DNA of 64,000 nucleotides, taken from Octopus vulgaris (lineage: Eukaryota). Made by a program: the position numbers and the translations under genes. The notes under the pieces were generated by a model, which saw nothing but the letters and a program-made list of their open reading frames with translations, searched no databases and was not told the DNA's origin. Below are positions 3,598 to 62,214 of this stretch, piece by piece. The stretch spans positions 122,884,001 through 122,948,000 of the forward strand of contig OX597814.1 of assembly GCA_951406725.2 (NCBI GenBank). Direction: 5' to 3'. How positions within the stretch are numbered: the first letter of the stretch is position 1; each line of letters starts with the position of its first letter.

Positions 3598-6362
3598 AAT
3601 GATAGGTACAAATCTAAAACTGTATATTGAGTACTGAATTTGCAAATTTCTTATCATTGGTCCATAGAAGTGTTATTTCTCCCTTATTTTTCTGACCACG
3701 TCAGTGTTCATCGGGTGGCCGACTTCCACAACACAGCATTTTATACTACAGTTACACATGTATGTATATCAGGTCTGTTGTGCTTATATTTTATTGAGGT
3801 CTTCACTGGTACATTCTACCAGTATTTTTTTTTTATTATGAGTGGCTATGGCTTCTACCATATTGTGAGTTCATAGTATCCTATCTGCGTCATGTCTCAT
3901 CGGTAGATAATACTGTGATGACATTTTTAGACAACTGCTTATGATATGCGTGATATCTTCAGTGTAAAGCTATCACGCCTTTGCTGCATTTCTATCCCTT
4001 TTGTGCATCAGGTATTTGGTTGATATTTCCTGTTCCTGGATTGCAAACGCATACCCTTCAAAGTGGGAGGTAGTAATCTGGCTATTGGTCCATGATAAAC
4101 TGCTTTGATGATCGATGTTACCATCATCACGGAGCTTTCTACTAACATATCCATGCCTAGTCTTCTGCTCATACAGGCTCATCCGTTCATCTGGTGATAT
4201 GTTGCGGTAGAGTCGTGCAACTTCTTTGAGCATGTATTCTAGGTTATCAGACAATGAGTGTTGCTCAAAGAGCTGCCTTCTAAGTCTTATGATGTTATCA
4301 ACCTCATGTATGCAGACTTGGTCAAGGGATCTACTTCGACACTTGGTGGTTAAAAGATGTTGCCGGGGGGGATATGATGCGATATTCAAAAGCATTTTAG
4401 ATCGATGTTAAGCCTCTACCGCCTTGTTTTCGTTTTAGGTAGAGGCGGTGTACACCACTGTTTATGCGGAAATTATGTGTGCTTGTTAGTATTTTTCGGT
4501 TTTTCACATCAATGGCTCGGATCTCATCAAGCGTCCAATCAAGCATCCCTAATGTTGGTATAGGTACTGGCACTGAAAACACATTGTTGGTCACTGTTTT
4601 ATTGAATGCAGGGAGTTCTAAGGTCCAAATTTTATTTATTCAACTGTTATATTCTTTAGTGATAGTGTTTTGTTACAGGCACCATTATAAGATATATTTT
4701 CATCCACCCCTAGATACCTGTAATATTCTTCGTCAGATACAGGGCAAACAGTCAAATGATTGATGGAGATGTTGCTAGTTTGGTTTATAGTCTTCCCCCT
4801 TTTCACAATCATATAACATTTATCTTGACCAAACTCCAACCCTACATCCTTTGAAAATGTTGTAATTAGGTCAAGGCTCTTTTTCATCTCATGCATATTC
4901 TTCGCATAAAGATTTAAGTCATCCACAAAGAAACAGTGTGTAATTTTAGTATTTCTGTTACCTTGTGAACCAGTGAGATACCTTCAGACCGCCTTAACAA
5001 AGGGTTTACAGAAAGTATACACAACATCACAGAGAGGCTGTCTTCTTGGAATATGCCTTTGCGATATTGTATTCTATCGGTGATAATACAGTCACTCTTT
5101 GCGTTTAATTTCAAGATGGTGGCCCACGATGAAGTCAGGTCAGGTATGGCTTTGACTATTCTCACTAGAACTTTAGCAAACTGAAGGGCTTCTAGCATCC
5201 ATGAGTGAGGAACAGATTCAAAGGCCTTCTTGCAGTCTAGCCACATTGAAACTAGGTTGTTCCTATGCTCTCGCACCTCAGACAACACAGTTTTGTAGAT
5301 TAACAATTGCTCGGTACATCCTTCTTCCCAGCCGCTTGTTTTGCTGTGATAATGTTATTGGTTTAACAATGGTCGTAGAGAAAGAGGTTTAAACACTCTG
5401 TATATATTTTGTACATTAAGTTCTGGCATGCAATTAGCCGGTAGCTTTTTTGCCATGTGGGTGGTTCTGCATTTGGGGATCAATTTTGTCTCTGCCAGAG
5501 CTAGCCGGTGTGGTATGCTACTGTTCCCAATGAAAGCTTGCCGGTACAGATTGATAAGATATGGTCGGTAGAATGTTTGCTTCTTGTACCAATATCCAAC
5601 AATCAAGTCTCTTCTAGGAGCTTTTCCATTTTGGAGTTTCTGGATCAGAGTTTGCAGGAGTTTCACCATCAATGTTGTATGTCTTGGATGTAACGCAGAA
5701 GTAATAACTTTTTCGGGTTTCTTCCAGCCACAGAGCATCTTGGTTAAATTCCTCCTCTTCACTCCAGATTTTCCTCCAGAAGGAGTCTATGTCTTCTTGT
5801 GAAGAAGCTTCCATAATGTTTACTACTCCTCCTCTCATGTCTCTATCTTCTGATGTCGAAGTTTTTCACTGACAGCTTTTAGCTCCTGCTCGAGGGTAAT
5901 CAGTTTGAAAGTGAGTGTCTTCTTTTTGATGTCTCCAAACATCACATCTATCTCCTTCTTCACTTTCTGTTGGTGGGACGTATAATGATTTGCTTGTTTG
6001 CATGCAATAAGCATCATTACATGACTGATGGTCTTCCGTAAGACAGATATCTTTTTCTCTGTCTTCAAAACCCATGATGTTACTTTCCTTATTTCGGTTT
6101 TGCTTACTTTTTGAATATCATTCATGTACTGTTTTACAGGTGTAGCCAGCGCATATAGACAGGCGTTAATCTGCCAGTATGTGAGTTCATCATACTGTTG
6201 TAAATATTCATCACCAATTTCGTTAACAGCTTTTATTACCGTATCTGGTGGTATTTATACTTACTTTGCTAGAGAATACTTTCTCCTCGACAAAGTCCTT
6301 CAAAGCCAAAGTTCTTTTTCTCGGGAAATTTCAGTAAGGGTACATTTCACCGGCATATAATA
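3598..6362 (-). mobile_element. R4-clade non-LTR retrotransposon, degraded (RT + zinc knuckle + partial RLE)
   Basis: Consecutive minus-strand ORF pieces: WLDCKKAFESVPHSWMLEAL, KGIFQEDSLS, (F)VDDLNLYAK, FGQDKC, YRYLGV, RLYLKRKQGGRGL, FAIQEQEISTK, ending FRFVPIII; many frameshifts. Confidence 0.9.
4636..5306 (-). pseudogene. Reverse transcriptase core of the R4-like element (disrupted)
   Basis: RT motifs D..KAF.SV.H, GIFQ.D.LS and xDD split across ORFs 4914-5306 and 4636-4926. Confidence 0.88.
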
Positions 6363-12505: not shown

Positions 12506-12579
12506 ACTGTCACACCCATGTGGAAAGACGGGCGATAAAAACATACATGCATACATGCATACAGAGATGATAATAACAT

Positions 12580-13420
12580 TGATCACCAAAGCAGTCTATC
12601 ATGGACCAACGACCAGATTACAACCTTTCTCTCTACAATCCAGGAACAGGAAATATCAGCCAAATACCTGATGCACAAAAGGGAGAGACGTGTAAGAAGA
12701 GCAGTAAAATGTGACAACCGATGCAGACTTTGTGGAGTTAACACCGAGGATATTACCCACATCATAAGCATTTGTCCGAAAAAGGCATCACAGTATATCT
12801 GCTGATGCGACATGACGTTGTAGGTAGGACGCTGTATAATGAGGTCCGTCGAAAGGATAACTCCGAGGACAAAGAAATAAGAACCCACTGTATGGTAGAA
12901 GCCATAGCCACTCATAATAAAAAGGAGTACTGGTGGAATGTCCCAGTGAAGACCTCAATAAAATGTAAACACAGTAGACCTGATATAGTGATTTGTGATA
13001 GAGAAGAGAAACTGTGCATAGTCGTGGAAAGTAGTTGCCCAGCGGATATTAACATAAAGCTCAAGATCAGTGAAAAGGAGAAAACCTACGCTGAATTATT
13101 GAGAGATGTGTAGTTTCTCTATCCAGATTACAAGTTCAGGTTTATACCTGTAATTATCGGGACACTGCCATATGTAATACACTGCCTAAATACCAATCTT
13201 GAAAAATTAGGCTTCTCAAAACCAGAAGGGAGAAAGCTAATTCGAAAACTACAAATCCAAGCCGTCACTGGAATGGTAAAACCTGTAAAACTTTCCAGAA
13301 GCTTATCATTTAAGTATATAGAAGCATGTCTAGTTATGCTAGTATATGAACGAGAATACAAGAATACATACATGATACTAAGCATACAAATCTGCACATA
13401 TGCATAAATACCCTGTTACT
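12580..13420 (+). mobile_element. R4-clade LINE 3' fragment (same family as 3598-6362)
   Basis: DHQSSLSWTN..IQEQEISAKYLMHKR..CDNRCRLCGVNTEDITHIISICP..RHDVVGRTLY..RPDIVICD..VESSCPAD..EKEKTYAEL..FIPVIIG; 3' UTR appears to resume at ~13768-13873. Confidence 0.9.
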
Positions 13421-52871: not shown

Positions 52872-53146
52872 TCACGTGACCACGTGATCACGTGACCGAC
52901 CAGACCATCAGATGTTGTTACACATCGCTGGTCACAATGCATTCGCATTGTTTTAGCCTTCGAGCAGGCCAACAGAAGAAAGAGTGGGAGAAAGAGTACA
53001 GCAGGGATCACCAACCCCTGCTGGAGCGTCGTGGCGGTTTTAGTTGTTTTTGCTCAATAAACACTCACAACGACCGGTCTGGGAATCGAAACCGCGATCC
53101 TACGACCGCGAGTCCGCTGCCCTAACCACTAAGCCATTGCGCTTCC
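52872..53146 (-). mobile_element. tRNA-derived SINE (group C head, different tail)
   Basis: Head ggaagcgcaatggcttagtggttagggcagcggactcgcgg; tail ends in repeated cacgtga. Confidence 0.75.
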
Positions 53147-53147
53147 A

Positions 53148-53291
<144 letters not shown>

Positions 53292-53299
53292 CAGTATAT

Positions 53300-53560
53300 A
53301 AGCAGTATATAGGCCATACAAAAAATAGCTTACGTAACAGGATGGCGGTGCATAAATCACAAATTAGAAACCCTGATTACCGCAAAATACCGGTCAGCGG
53401 ACACATAGATAGATGTGCTGGAAATGTAAATCCGAAATTTACAACTAACCCGCTCTATAAATTCAGTGACAACGCAACCTTCACACAACGCCAAAATAAA
53501 GAACTATATTTCATAAAAAAATTTAGACCAAGTTTAAACACCCTGGGCCAGGAATACTAA
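53300..53560 (+). pseudogene. PLE GIY-YIG endonuclease fragment
   Basis: In frame: [44 protein letters not shown], with the YIG, R, H, E and LN landmarks. Confidence 0.87.
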
Positions 53561-53729
53561 AACAAAAGATAAGTCCTCCGAAAAGGAGAAGCAAAATTCC
53601 ACCACGGCCGCTACTTTAAACAGACACTCGCTCTGACGGAAATATGCCTTAGTAAAAAAGGAAAAAAATTCTTTCGTGCAAATCTGACCCTGATACATAC
53701 GATACAGCCAAGGGTCAGACCCGATTCTG

Positions 53730-54175
53730 ATTGGTCAACAAGTTGATGACGTCTAGCTCTGCTAGAATGGACAGGACACAAACAGGGGACAGTCATTAGT
53801 CAGAATATTGATGACGTCCTTTTCTGCTTGACTAGTTACCTAACAAGTACAGACAGGGGGCAGATCTAATGTAGCTATAAGTCGTGATTGGGCAGAATCT
53901 GGATGACGTCCCGTTCCGCTTGACTAACGAAGCGACTGGTCAAAACAGGAAACAAACAAGAGGCAGTTATAATGCAGCGATTGGTCAAAATGATGATGAC
54001 GTCCCGTTCTGCTTGAATAAAGCCACCTAACGAAACGATTGGTCAAAACGTTGATGACGTCACGCTACGCTAGATTGACCACCTAACAGGCATTATAAAA
54101 CCGAGCACTTCACAAAACCCACTAGATCCACCCAGCGAACATCCACCATGGGTCATCACAATTGCTTAAGGTAAA
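53730..54175 (+). promoter_or_regulatory. Promoter-like array: five CCAAT(rev)-N9-CRE modules, TATA box, Kozak ATG, splice donor
   Basis: ATTGG/ATTAG at 53730, 53795, 53887, 53980 and 54038, each 14 nt before (T/G)GATGACGTC; TATAAAA 54094; ccaccATGg 54148; aag|GTAAAA 54171. Confidence 0.68.
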
Positions 54176-54538
54176 AATGAATTCCTCGCTCTTTCGGAAA
54201 CATCAATCTTCTGTATTGACCGCTTTCCACCACTTTGATCTGTTTTTTGTATTGAATACGTATCACCACCGTGGGCCACTGCATCGAACACTTTGAACAT
54301 ATACTTCAAACTATATATCCATTATACATGAACTATATATCAACTATACATGAACTCTAAGATGTCTGACTCCGTTGTGTATTATAAATGAATTTCTTGT
54401 GTTTGACGGCATGAGCTGTCTTTTTTTATATATAACTTTTTTTGGTAAGGTTCATTTCAGGAACTGAAACATGTTATAATGTATATATAAAAATTAAAAA
54501 ATTGTATAATACAGCAGCATTTTCGAACTTCATTTTTT

Positions 54539-54601
<63 letters not shown>

Positions 54602-54669: not shown

Positions 54670-55395
54670 ATATTCTTTTCTTCGTTTCAGCCTTGCAGCT
54701 GTGGTCATGCTGGAGCACCACCATGGTCTTCCTATTTTCCTCATGCTGAATGGGTTTCACATCACCACTCCTGTATGCACCTTTGACCCAGTTGTTGGCC
54801 CATTTGGTGTGAGAGGAAGTCTGATTCTGCTGCCCTCTTCTGTACCTCATGTAGAGCCGCTGGTTCATCCGGTATTATGAAAAGGAGGATGTCTAGTTCC
54901 TTTTTGAAGACATCTACGTCCACATTATGTAGATTTCTTAGTTTTTGCCGCAGGATATTGAAGATCAGTGGGCCTTTGAACCCTAAATATTGCAGTACCT
55001 GGTCTTGAATTTAGATGGAGTGAAAGGTGTCTTTGGTACAATACAATGGTATCTAGTCCTAGCGTTTGTATAAAATTCGATGCCGAAATTGGGTACTAGC
55101 CCTTGTAGAGTTAATAATATATAGACTATTACATAACTGTCACGCCTTCTCTTCAGGGACTAAAGTCGCTGTTTTTTCGGCCTATCCCTGTAGCCCATCC
55201 TCTGCACTGTTTCGATCTCTTTAATGTAGTGGAATTGAACTGCTTCAAGCTCCGCTGTTAGTTTGACTCTATGTGGTGACCATAGCTGAGAGCAGTAGTC
55301 CAGGCAACTGAGAACAAAGGTCTTCCACAGGGTCAATAAAACTTCTTGGCTGCTTGTCTTAAAGGACCTGACTATCCACCCTGCCAGTTATCTGC
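54670..55395 (-). mobile_element. CR1-group LINE 3' fragment
   Basis: Minus strand: LDYCSQLWSPH..ELEAVQ..SLKRRRD..GLVPN..GPLIFNIL..LRNL..VDVFKKELD..IPDEP; 3' UTR ends ggtgctccagcatgaccacagc..ctgaaac. Confidence 0.82.
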
Positions 55396-55475
55396 ACTTG
55401 CTCCTATATTGGTATACAAATATGTATGTATGTATATATATCAATACACACACACACAGACACACACACATACAC

Positions 55476-55548: not shown

Positions 55549-56793
55549 CAGGGGTTGGACAAAATAATAATGGAAACACCTAGCATTATAGCATCATAAT
55601 TTTGAAATATCTATAAAACCGTCAAAACCTTGTTTATTTTTATGTTTTTTTTTTATTTATTAGTAGTGTTGTTTAATATGTTTTGCGAAAATTGCTGTTT
55701 CTTTGTAATTAAAATTCAATAAAATGACAGATCTATCGAACTTTCAAAGAGAGCAAATTGTTGGTGCTCATATGGCAGGCACTAGCATAATGAAAACAGC
55801 CAAAATATCTGGTGTATCAAGAAGTACTGTCTTGAAAGTAATGACAGCCTTTGAGAAAGAGGGAAAAACATCCTCGTCGAAACAAAACTCTCGAAGAAAA
55901 CCAAAACTTTCAGATAAGGATCGTCAGACTCGTATACGAATTGTTAGAAAGGATCACAAAAGTACAGCTCCCAGAGTTACTGCCGAGCTTAATGACCACC
56001 TCGAGAACCAAGTTTCCATAAAAACTGTTCGCCGGGAGCTGCACAAATGCGGATTTCACGGGAGCTGCACAAATCCGGATTTCACGGGAGGGCTGCAATC
56101 AGAAAACCACTACTTTCAAAAACAAACGTTGCAAAGCGTTTAGAGTGGAGTAAAAGCTTACAGAATTGGTACCTAGAGCAATGAAAGAATATTATTTTCT
56201 CGGACGAGTCCTCCTTTACCTTATTTCTGACCACCGGCCGAGTATACATGTGGAGACAGCCAAAAGAAGCATTTGACCCAGACTGCTTTCTTCCAACTGT
56301 TAAACATGGAGAAGGATCTGTAATGATCTGGAGGGCTCTATCTTGGAAATCCGCCAGCCCAATGTTTTCTCTTCATGTCAGAATTAAGACTTTTTAAGCA
56401 TTTTATCTGATGAAATACACTCTATGGTTGCGGGACTGTTTCCGGAGGGAAACGCAATCTTTCATCTTGATAATGCACCAATTCAAACAGCTAAAGTTGT
56501 TACTGAATGGCACGAAGAACATTCTAGTGAAGATCAGTGCACAGTTCTCAATATTATTGAACATTTATGGTGCATTTTTGAAAACCAAGTAAGGAATCGA
56601 TATTCTCCACCATCAGTACTAGAAGAACTGGAGACTGTTTTATTTTAAGAATGGGGAAAAATTCCTTTGGAAACAATTAAAACTTTGTATGAGTCCATAC
56701 CTCCAAGTTGTAATTACTGCCGAAGACGGTCCTATCTCATATTAAAATAATTTTGTTTGAAATTTTAATGTTTCCATTATTTTGTCCAACCCC

Positions 56794-61046: not shown

Positions 61047-62214
61047 TCTGAACTAATTGTAGTTTCTGATTTACAGGTGTTTGAACTGAGTCAAGTGTGA
61101 AATGGAGCCTGTTGAGTGTCGAGCAGTGATCCGGTTTTTGTATTTGAAAGGACGCACACCACGGGAGACTTTTGATGAAATGAAAGTAACTTATGGTGAT
61201 GATGCCCCATCATATGACCTTGTAAAACGCTGGCATCGTGAATTCAAACATGGTCGGAACTCTGTGGAAACAGCTCCCAGATCTGGTCGCCCCCTTCTGC
61301 TATTGATGAGGCAACTGTCCGTCAAGTTGAGGCTGCCATTTTGGAAGATCGACGCATAACTATTCGCCAAATAGCCCATGAGATCAAGATTAGTACCGGG
61401 TCTGTGGAAACTATCATTCATGACCATTTGCATATGCAAAAGGTGTCTGCTAGATGGATTCCCAGGTTGCTCACACCTTTCCAGAAGCAAGAACGCGTCG
61501 AGTGCTCGAGGATGAATTTGGAGATGTGCCAAGAAGATGAGTCAAAATTTTTCAAAAGACTGATTACACAGGATGAAACCTGGGTCCATCACGATGATCC
61601 AGAGACCAAAGCCCAGTCAATGCAGTGGAAGCACCATGACTCACCTCCTCTAAAGAAGGCAAAGGTGCAGCCCTCCGCTGGCAAGGTCATGCTCACAGTC
61701 TTCTGGGACCAGGACGGAGTAGTGATGACAGATTTCCTGGCAAAGGGTACCACAATTACAGGAGCCTATTATGCTTCACTTTTGAGGAAATTAAGAGAAG
61801 CTATCAAAATCAAGAGGCAGGGCAAGATCAGCAAAGACATCGACAACGCTCCGGTCCACAACTCGCGTGTCGCCAGATCGGAAGCACAGGCGTGCGGCTA
61901 TGAACTCCTCCCCCATCCCCCCTACTCTCCTGACCTTGCACCCTCTGATTTTCTCCTCTTTCCAGCCATGAAGTTGTTTTTGAAAGTAAAGCATTTCCCA
62001 GATGATGCAGCCTTGATTTCTGAAGTCACGTCGTGGTTGGAGGACCAAGCTGGGGTCTTCTACAAAAACGGTCTCCAGAGCTGCATCAAATGATGGGAGA
62101 AATGCGTACCTCTTGGTGGTTCCTATGTAGAAAAAGACTAATAACTGTGCCAAGTTTCGTTGCTCTACCTGGTATGGGAAGTGGGTCAGGGGCATTACTT
62201 ATTGAACGCCCCTC

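Follow-up and report, generated by a model that had tools for sequence, protein, structure and literature searches.

A truncated Penelope-like element between two (TA)n tracts

The locus lies in a 64-kb window, by which we mean the whole stretch of octopus DNA that was analysed, and holds a 5'-truncated copy of a Penelope-like element (PLE) that keeps the end of its endonuclease (EN) and its pseudo-LTR between two (TA)n microsatellites (Table 1). The copy opens within a GIY-YIG domain (Pfam PF01541, E=5.6e-5, above the cut-off) in which the YIG, both CCHH His and the R/E/N residues are present, the Cys pair lying 5' of the truncation. A phmmer search with this fragment against 1.84 billion proteins gave 447 matches, the best of them, 73% identical, coming from Octopus bimaculoides; a word-index protein search for longer relatives returned no matches, and it was phmmer that recovered them. 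The long matches are proteins of 700-770 residues that combine a reverse transcriptase (RT) with a C-terminal EN and carry DKG and a CX2-5CxxC linker. Among six full-length relatives scanned with Pfam, RVT_1 was recognised in four and GIY-YIG in five, with RT motifs visible in all six. The EN is C-terminal here too, as a stop codon follows it and the best long matches align at their own C-termini. The PLE context that the preliminary description had proposed is therefore borne out, both by the Pfam match and by the C-terminal EN of these RT-EN relatives.

DKG and the CX2-5CxxC linker, along with a C-terminal GIY-YIG EN, are given as marks of Neptune/Nematis PLEs in the excerpts of PMC8557442 consulted here, and the relatives are probably of this type. 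The window copy resembles such elements in its C-terminal GIY-YIG with the CCHH His residues, its (TA)n target, its 5' truncation and a hammerhead close to the 3' end, here a decayed candidate (PMC8557442, in part); the (TA)n bias is shared by Naiads and hence is non-diagnostic for Neptune/Nematis. It differs from them in having neither RT nor linker and in the 881 nt that separate its EN stop from the hammerhead, an interval that contains the CCAAT-CRE array described below. No RT of the element was found in the truncated copy, in the sequence downstream or elsewhere in the window, and blastn and tblastn detected neither a further copy nor a tandem pseudo-LTR partner in the window, leaving a single unit.

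Towards its 3' end the element harbors a type-I hammerhead-like motif, the sole match (at 54442) of a core-plus-helix-II scan of the element. It comprises a U3-A8 core variant with one core mismatch (54442-54448), a 5-bp helix II, GAAA at 54466, a palindromic helix III and a 12-bp outer stem, and folds with z=-2.98. Of its sequence, 18 of 19 nt are identical to the intact U3-A8 hammerhead of a relative, L006 (E=0.002, searched against eight 3' regions), and the U3-A8 variant has been described for PLE ribozymes (PMC4209133, in excerpt). The motif does not pass a stricter helix-I filter. Rfam gave no hammerhead match in the window, nor in nine related loci; since the clear motifs of the relatives were missed too, Rfam is uninformative for minimal hammerheads. 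We read the window motif as a decayed ribozyme. Sited between the EN stop codon and this motif, the array can be assigned to the pseudo-LTR, in agreement with its earlier placement. A repeat-like segment left of the (TA)n tract opens with three CACGTG E-boxes in an 8-nt period (52873-52894).

Table 1. Features of the element and its flanks (positions within the 64-kb window)
Feature	Position	Strand	Basis
(TA)n microsatellite, left flank, likely insertion target	53150..53289	.	
5'-truncated PLE copy, 1.25 kb: EN end and pseudo-LTR	53290..54542	+	
C-terminal 89 aa of GIY-YIG endonuclease; stop 53558-53560	53291..53560	+	Pfam, phmmer
9-bp inverted repeat directly 5' of array	53683..53719	.	sequence
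Unit 1: ATTGG, 9 nt, TGATGACGTC, GCTWGA box	53730..53767	+	pattern scan, unit alignment
Unit 2, CCAAT box broken (ATTAG)	53795..53832	+	pattern scan, unit alignment
Unit 3	53887..53924	+	pattern scan, unit alignment
Partial sixth unit: ACTGG and spacer start, without CRE; overlooked in the preliminary description	53935..53946	+	
Unit 4	53980..54017	+	pattern scan, unit alignment
Unit 5, sole full palindromic CRE at 54055-54062	54038..54075	+	pattern scan
TATA box candidate TATAAAA, 51 nt after last ATTGG	54094..54100	+	
Predicted start of transcription: pyrimidine-A steps at distances of 27 and 30 nt from TATA	54121..54126	+	spacing
ATG in Kozak-like context CCACCATGG	54148..54150	+	
Candidate splice donor, GT at 54171, ~47 nt after predicted start	54168..54176	+	
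Decayed type-I hammerhead-like motif	54421..54493	+	core-plus-helix-II scan, L006 similarity
Candidate splice acceptors ending 54449 and 54460, within hammerhead-like motif	54447..54460	+	
(TA)n microsatellite, right flank	54543..54590	.	

Five CCAAT-CRE units arisen by tandem duplication

A scan of the 64-kb window with the pattern ATT.G-N9-.GATGACGTC finds units 1 to 5 of Table 1, whose starts lie 65, 92, 93 and 58 nt apart and whose common form is ATT(G/A)G-N9-KGATGACGTC (n=5). All five plus-strand occurrences of GATGACGTC in the 64 kb fall within these units, and when the element was dinucleotide-shuffled 2000 times, the CCAAT-CRE module never arose. A complete TGACGTCA is present in the last unit only, the other four matching 7 of 8 bases for want of the last palindrome base, and one CCAAT box is broken. 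The scan thus recovers what had been described at first sight: five ATTGG or ATTAG boxes followed after 9 nt by a CRE-like site at those distances, a full CRE confined to the last module, and TATAAAA, a Kozak-like ATG and an AAG/GTAAAA donor 3' of the units (54094, 54148 and 54171). A third conserved box, GCTWGA, lies 7 nt 3' of the CRE in all five units (53761-53766 in unit 1); we know of no motif that it fits. Apart from unit 5, a full TGACGTCA occurs just once in the window, with a CCAAT 5 nt downstream (1107-1124), and we rejected this pair, CRE at 1107 and CCAAT at 1120, as a further module, its spacing being different and homology to the array being absent.

The spacers, which had been described as varying, turn out to be related. 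Distances between units do vary; pairwise identity among the five units, however, reaches 64% for the spacer and 66% for the 14 nt 3' of the CRE, against 26% for random sequence, and the unit alignment holds 38 columns in gap-free register, 14 of them beyond the CRE. The five units are paralogous tandem duplicates, and their identical 9-nt spacing was thus inherited by duplication rather than acquired in five independent events. The fixed gap is what duplication yields; the 14 columns to which no role in spacing is ascribed are just as free of gaps. Indels in the unit tails account for the variable distances between units. The exact phasing of the preliminary description consequently finds no support as independent evidence. 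Helical phasing between the units is not evident either, the spacings corresponding to 6.2, 8.8, 8.9 and 5.5 turns.

An alternative is that the array expanded neutrally, by tandem duplication within the 3' UTR, its ancestral unit having happened to hold ATTGG and TGACGTC and the motifs having been picked out afterwards. The clear paralogy, the register that runs gap-free past the CRE and a conserved box of no known identity all agree with this, as do run tests that are borderline (longest-run permutation, p=0.053; 9-column run, p=0.036 at the all-column rate). The motif columns have nevertheless been kept better than their homologous flanks, being invariant at 13 of 14 positions versus 9 of 23 (Fisher p=0.0013, post hoc); the a priori CCAAT and TGACGTCA columns are invariant at 11 of 13 versus 11 of 25 others (p=0.018), and a neutral star-tree simulation gives p=0.014 with the rate taken from all columns and p=0.0003 with that of the flanks, where all such tests draw on five non-independent, paralogous units of one copy and the conservative ones range over p ~0.014-0.05. 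Furthermore, the CpG of the CRE is retained in all five units, other CpG columns being kept in three, two and one of the five. Adding the TATA box at its published distance and the fact that distant PLEs are enriched in CRE half-sites (both below), we judge neutral expansion unlikely, and hold with moderate confidence, from these column comparisons, that the motifs have been selected over their flanks. The promoter-like CCAAT/CRE/TATA arrangement of the preliminary description stands on this footing.

The extended CCAAT context, RRCCAAT(C/G)(A/G), is present in three units and in 9 of all 102 CCAAT occurrences in the window. The TATA box can be aligned at 13 of 15 positions with TATA-like bases in earlier units, 10% of shuffles doing equally well, and its being a paralogue of these bases is suggestive only.

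Predicted start and candidate donor and acceptors downstream of the array

The signals 3' of the array are individually weak: the plus strand of the window holds 19 TATAAAA, two CCACCATGG and two AAGGTAAAA. Combined into one loose TATA-ATG-donor pattern, which was drawn up with the site already in view, the three match nowhere else on either strand. The candidate donor is without the +5 G. The 189 nt 3' of it are free of AG, against 6.8 AG expected, with comparable runs existing elsewhere in the window. With splicing to the acceptor at 54449, the frame of the ATG would stay open as far as the end of the element, which is a weak signal (p=0.048 given the frame, 0.14 for any), and the stronger-looking acceptor at 54460 would give a frame of 9 codons, so the ATG may start either ORF1 or a uORF depending on which of the two is used. 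The first outcome accords with Anolis Poseidon, where the ORF begins at the hammerhead and copies end ~110 nt into it (PMC11167929, in excerpt); the full-length relatives, being predicted from internal starts, give no view of the N-terminus. On the strength of these sites, splicing from the candidate donor at 54171 is plausible. The putative intron also contains an 11/22-nt tandem repeat (54309-54356) and a 6-bp hairpin (54406-54421).

A more specific reading, which follows the preliminary description, is that the promoter responds to cAMP or ER stress and supplies a host gene nearby with its first exon. The full CRE at 54055, with four further sites at 7/8, could be taken in its favour, as could the pyrimidine-rich AG that lies outside the element at 54690, and Penelope can in principle drive downstream transcription (PMC2377424, as excerpted). 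What surrounds the element argues otherwise. Of the reading frames in the window, 149 were scanned with Pfam (the 148 longest of 218 passing a complexity filter and one added, so that small host exons may be missed); ten gave matches, nine to transposon domains and one, of low score and below threshold, to 'New_glue', with no convincing host gene or host-gene domain among the 149. Acceptors inside the element are nearer, and the one at 54690 leads into the antisense of a broken frame that resembles the C-terminus of a LINE RT (54690-55400, minus strand). This stretch, including 55163-55387, had no Pfam match and fell in the Atlas only into unnamed, mostly eukaryotic clusters. Stress elements are absent from the array as well: ERSE, ERSE-II (ATTGG-N-CCACG), UPRE (TGACGTGG/A) and the XBP1 core GATGACGTG, defined as in the excerpts of PMC8910952, have 0 matches on both strands of 53561-54170. 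Nothing in the sequence specifically favours inducibility of the array, and we consider an inducible exon donor improbable.

Elsewhere in the window are remnants of Tc1/mariner-type transposases (55709-56645 and 61090-62090, both plus strand; Pfam HTH_Tnp_Tc3_2, DDE_3, HTH_48, Transposase_1) and fragments of LINE-type reverse transcriptase and zf-RVT (4639-5354, minus strand; 12539-12802, plus strand).

Geometry of the array and of known promoters

Read on the CCAAT strand, the edge of the CRE lies 12 nt 5' of CCAAT (~18 nt centre-to-centre), and the last CCAAT box is separated from TATA by 51 nt and from the predicted start by ~84 nt. In human NF-Y sites, as far as excerpts of PMC3730095 and PMC7793273 report, partners upstream of CCAAT are AP-1 at 10-11 bp (in LTRs only) and E-boxes at 11-12 bp, TATA is found at +50 and CCAAT stands ~80 bp from the start. 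A bZIP site 12 nt 5' of CCAAT falls in the published 10-12 bp, a fit that depends on the measuring convention. Endogenous retroviral (ERV) LTRs, furthermore, typically carry tandem CCAAT repeats (PMC3730095, in part), and human ERV-9/LTR12 likewise joins such repeats in a retroelement promoter to a bZIP site ~12 nt 5' (PMC3730095, PMC7793273, both in part), with TATA in human ERV LTRs again ~50 nt from CCAAT (PMC3730095). Here, by contrast, the element is a PLE of an invertebrate and the partner is a CRE-type site; the analogy is a functional one, and homology is not claimed.

The parallel with ERSE that had been drawn at first does not hold. ERSE, CCAAT-N9-CCACG in the excerpts of PMC8910952, likewise has CCAAT near a bZIP-type site, and the gap is 9 nt if the partner here is taken as KGATGACGTC; in the array, however, the partner is on the other side of CCAAT, its sequence differs and the CRE octamer stands 12 nt away. 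With 0 ERSE-type matches in 53561-54170, we discarded the ERSE/UPRE reading.

Penelope itself offers a closer comparison in one respect and a more distant one in another. Its regulatory region, too, lies in the 3' UTR/pseudo-LTR (PMC2377424; PMC4209133), and its intron begins 46 nt after the start (PMC2377424) and ends at the hammerhead (PMC4209133), which can be set beside a predicted first exon of ~47 nt and a candidate intron end at the hammerhead here. According to the same partial sources, however, the Penelope promoter of Drosophila virilis lies internally, lacks a TATA and has RGACGTGY as its downstream element (PMC2377424), and Penelope and Chlamys-3 both have internal promoters overlapping the intron (PMC2377424; PMC8557442), whereas the motifs of the window copy lie 5' of the predicted start and include CCAAT boxes and TATA. 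A Penelope-like TATA-less internal promoter was rejected, RGACGTGY having 0 matches in 53561-54170 and TATA being present.

CRE half-sites in distant relatives

One scan of bacterial genome contigs yielded 47 PLE loci (486 kb), of which 11 had their 3' ends inspected; six of these carry a hammerhead as well as an EN stop, five as found by scan and L007 by eye. Where matched, their EN is 35-42% identical to that of the window copy. The interval from stop to hammerhead is 146-386 nt in these six, versus 881 nt here; CCAAT occurs between the two in none of the six, ATTGG-N10-14-TGACG occurs in none of the 47 loci (486 kb), and four of the six have no donor-like site. With an EN only 35-42% identical, the relatives are too distant to test the CCAAT-CRE array itself; their lack of CCAAT, their shorter interval and the scarcity of donor-like sites weigh against the promoter reading taken below.

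On the CRE, the relatives are more telling. TGACGT/ACGTCA has six matches between stop and hammerhead, in three of the six relatives, against 0.30 expected (0/2000 shuffles; the six matches are five sites, one palindrome being counted twice), and the enrichment stays significant family-wise over all hexamers (1 of 1500); in the ORFs of the six relatives, 3 matches compare with ~2.9 expected. The sites have the form ACGTCA(C/T) and lie at L001:3583-3616, L002:1803-1825 and L005:2499-2504, each of these three loci having one half-site 49-53 nt before the ribozyme core. They could be CRE half-sites or initiator-like. Most are opposite in orientation to those of the window, and occurrence in either orientation fits a DNA-binding site. 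Distant relatives thus lend support, at the level of sequence, to a CRE-like signal in PLE pseudo-LTRs. In the supplement of PMC8557442, as far as consulted, GATGACGTC and ATTGGTCAAAA occur once each, both in unrelated contexts.

Discussion

Taken together, these results lead us to regard the array as probably the PLE family's own upstream NF-Y/bZIP/TATA promoter, U3-like in design and built from tandem duplicates in the 3' UTR. NF-Y would occupy the ATTGG boxes and CREB/ATF-type bZIPs the adjoining TGACGT sites; TBP would bind the TATA box, and the RNA would start near 54124. Being located in the 3' UTR, like the U3 of an LTR, the cassette would be copied with each RNA and, in a partial-tandem insertion, could drive the next copy. 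A short first exon would follow, and then an intron ending near the hammerhead, as in Penelope. With its RT missing and its hammerhead damaged, the window copy is therefore a solo promoter remnant amid transposon fragments.

We infer that the cassette belongs to the family by origin, and a foreign source deserves weighing: a solo-LTR-like or host fragment of ~500-700 nt may have been inserted into, or captured by, the 3' UTR of the PLE. The interval is indeed 500-700 nt longer than in the six relatives, none of which has a CCAAT there, and CCAAT repeats in tandem characterise ERV LTRs (PMC3730095, in part). Length differences are, however, to be expected among elements whose EN is only 35-42% identical; read by eye, the sequence presents no obvious LTR-type ends or target duplication; and the order start, exon, donor, hammerhead fits PLE architecture. 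We think capture of a foreign promoter quite unlikely. The repeats might instead act at the level of RNA, for instance as binding or packaging sites for a PLE protein, given that they lie in a transcribed 3' UTR and that PLE RNA ends carry functional structures (PMC11167929, in excerpt). Against this, the columns that are conserved match two DNA motifs whose spacing is known, CRE half-sites are found in both orientations across PLEs and no Rfam family reaches its gathering score, and we accord an RNA-level role very little probability.

The family's own promoter, if such it is, would give a PLE an LTR-like design with named candidate factors, in a group of which very few elements have had their promoters examined; that LTR-like promoter design may have arisen later is a suggestion of the Penelope paper (PMC2377424, as excerpted). 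Retroelement enhancer repeats, NF-Y spacing rules and pseudo-LTR promoters are already known, and only their combination appears new: the literature searched, which included few subscription journals, described no CCAAT-CRE array for a PLE, and the family may be on record in repeat databases already. Since most PLE copies are reduced to their 3' end, a family of this kind could disperse promoters. Pressed further, a scenario that we regard as unlikely would have a cephalopod PLE lineage converging on a retroviral U3-type design, with amplified NF-Y/CREB repeats and TATA, grown from a CRE-like site common to distant PLE pseudo-LTRs; throughout the octopus genome, each 5'-truncated insertion would leave a promoter that resembles a solo LTR, responds to signals and comes with a splice donor, and certain of these would serve host genes as first exons.

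A lead of its own is that the pseudo-LTRs of distant PLEs are enriched in CRE half-sites. The relatives concerned (L001-L047, with proteins P0203, P0233, P0242 and P0267) are filed under bacterial assemblies, symbiont and other MAGs, and the contigs are likely to be contamination from animal hosts rather than bacterial retroelements. One of them, L012:1-4168, is a seemingly complete, circularly assembled two-ORF PLE, in which RT-EN is followed by a TATA-like box 38 nt before the hammerhead (2768) and then by an ORF1 of 385 codons.
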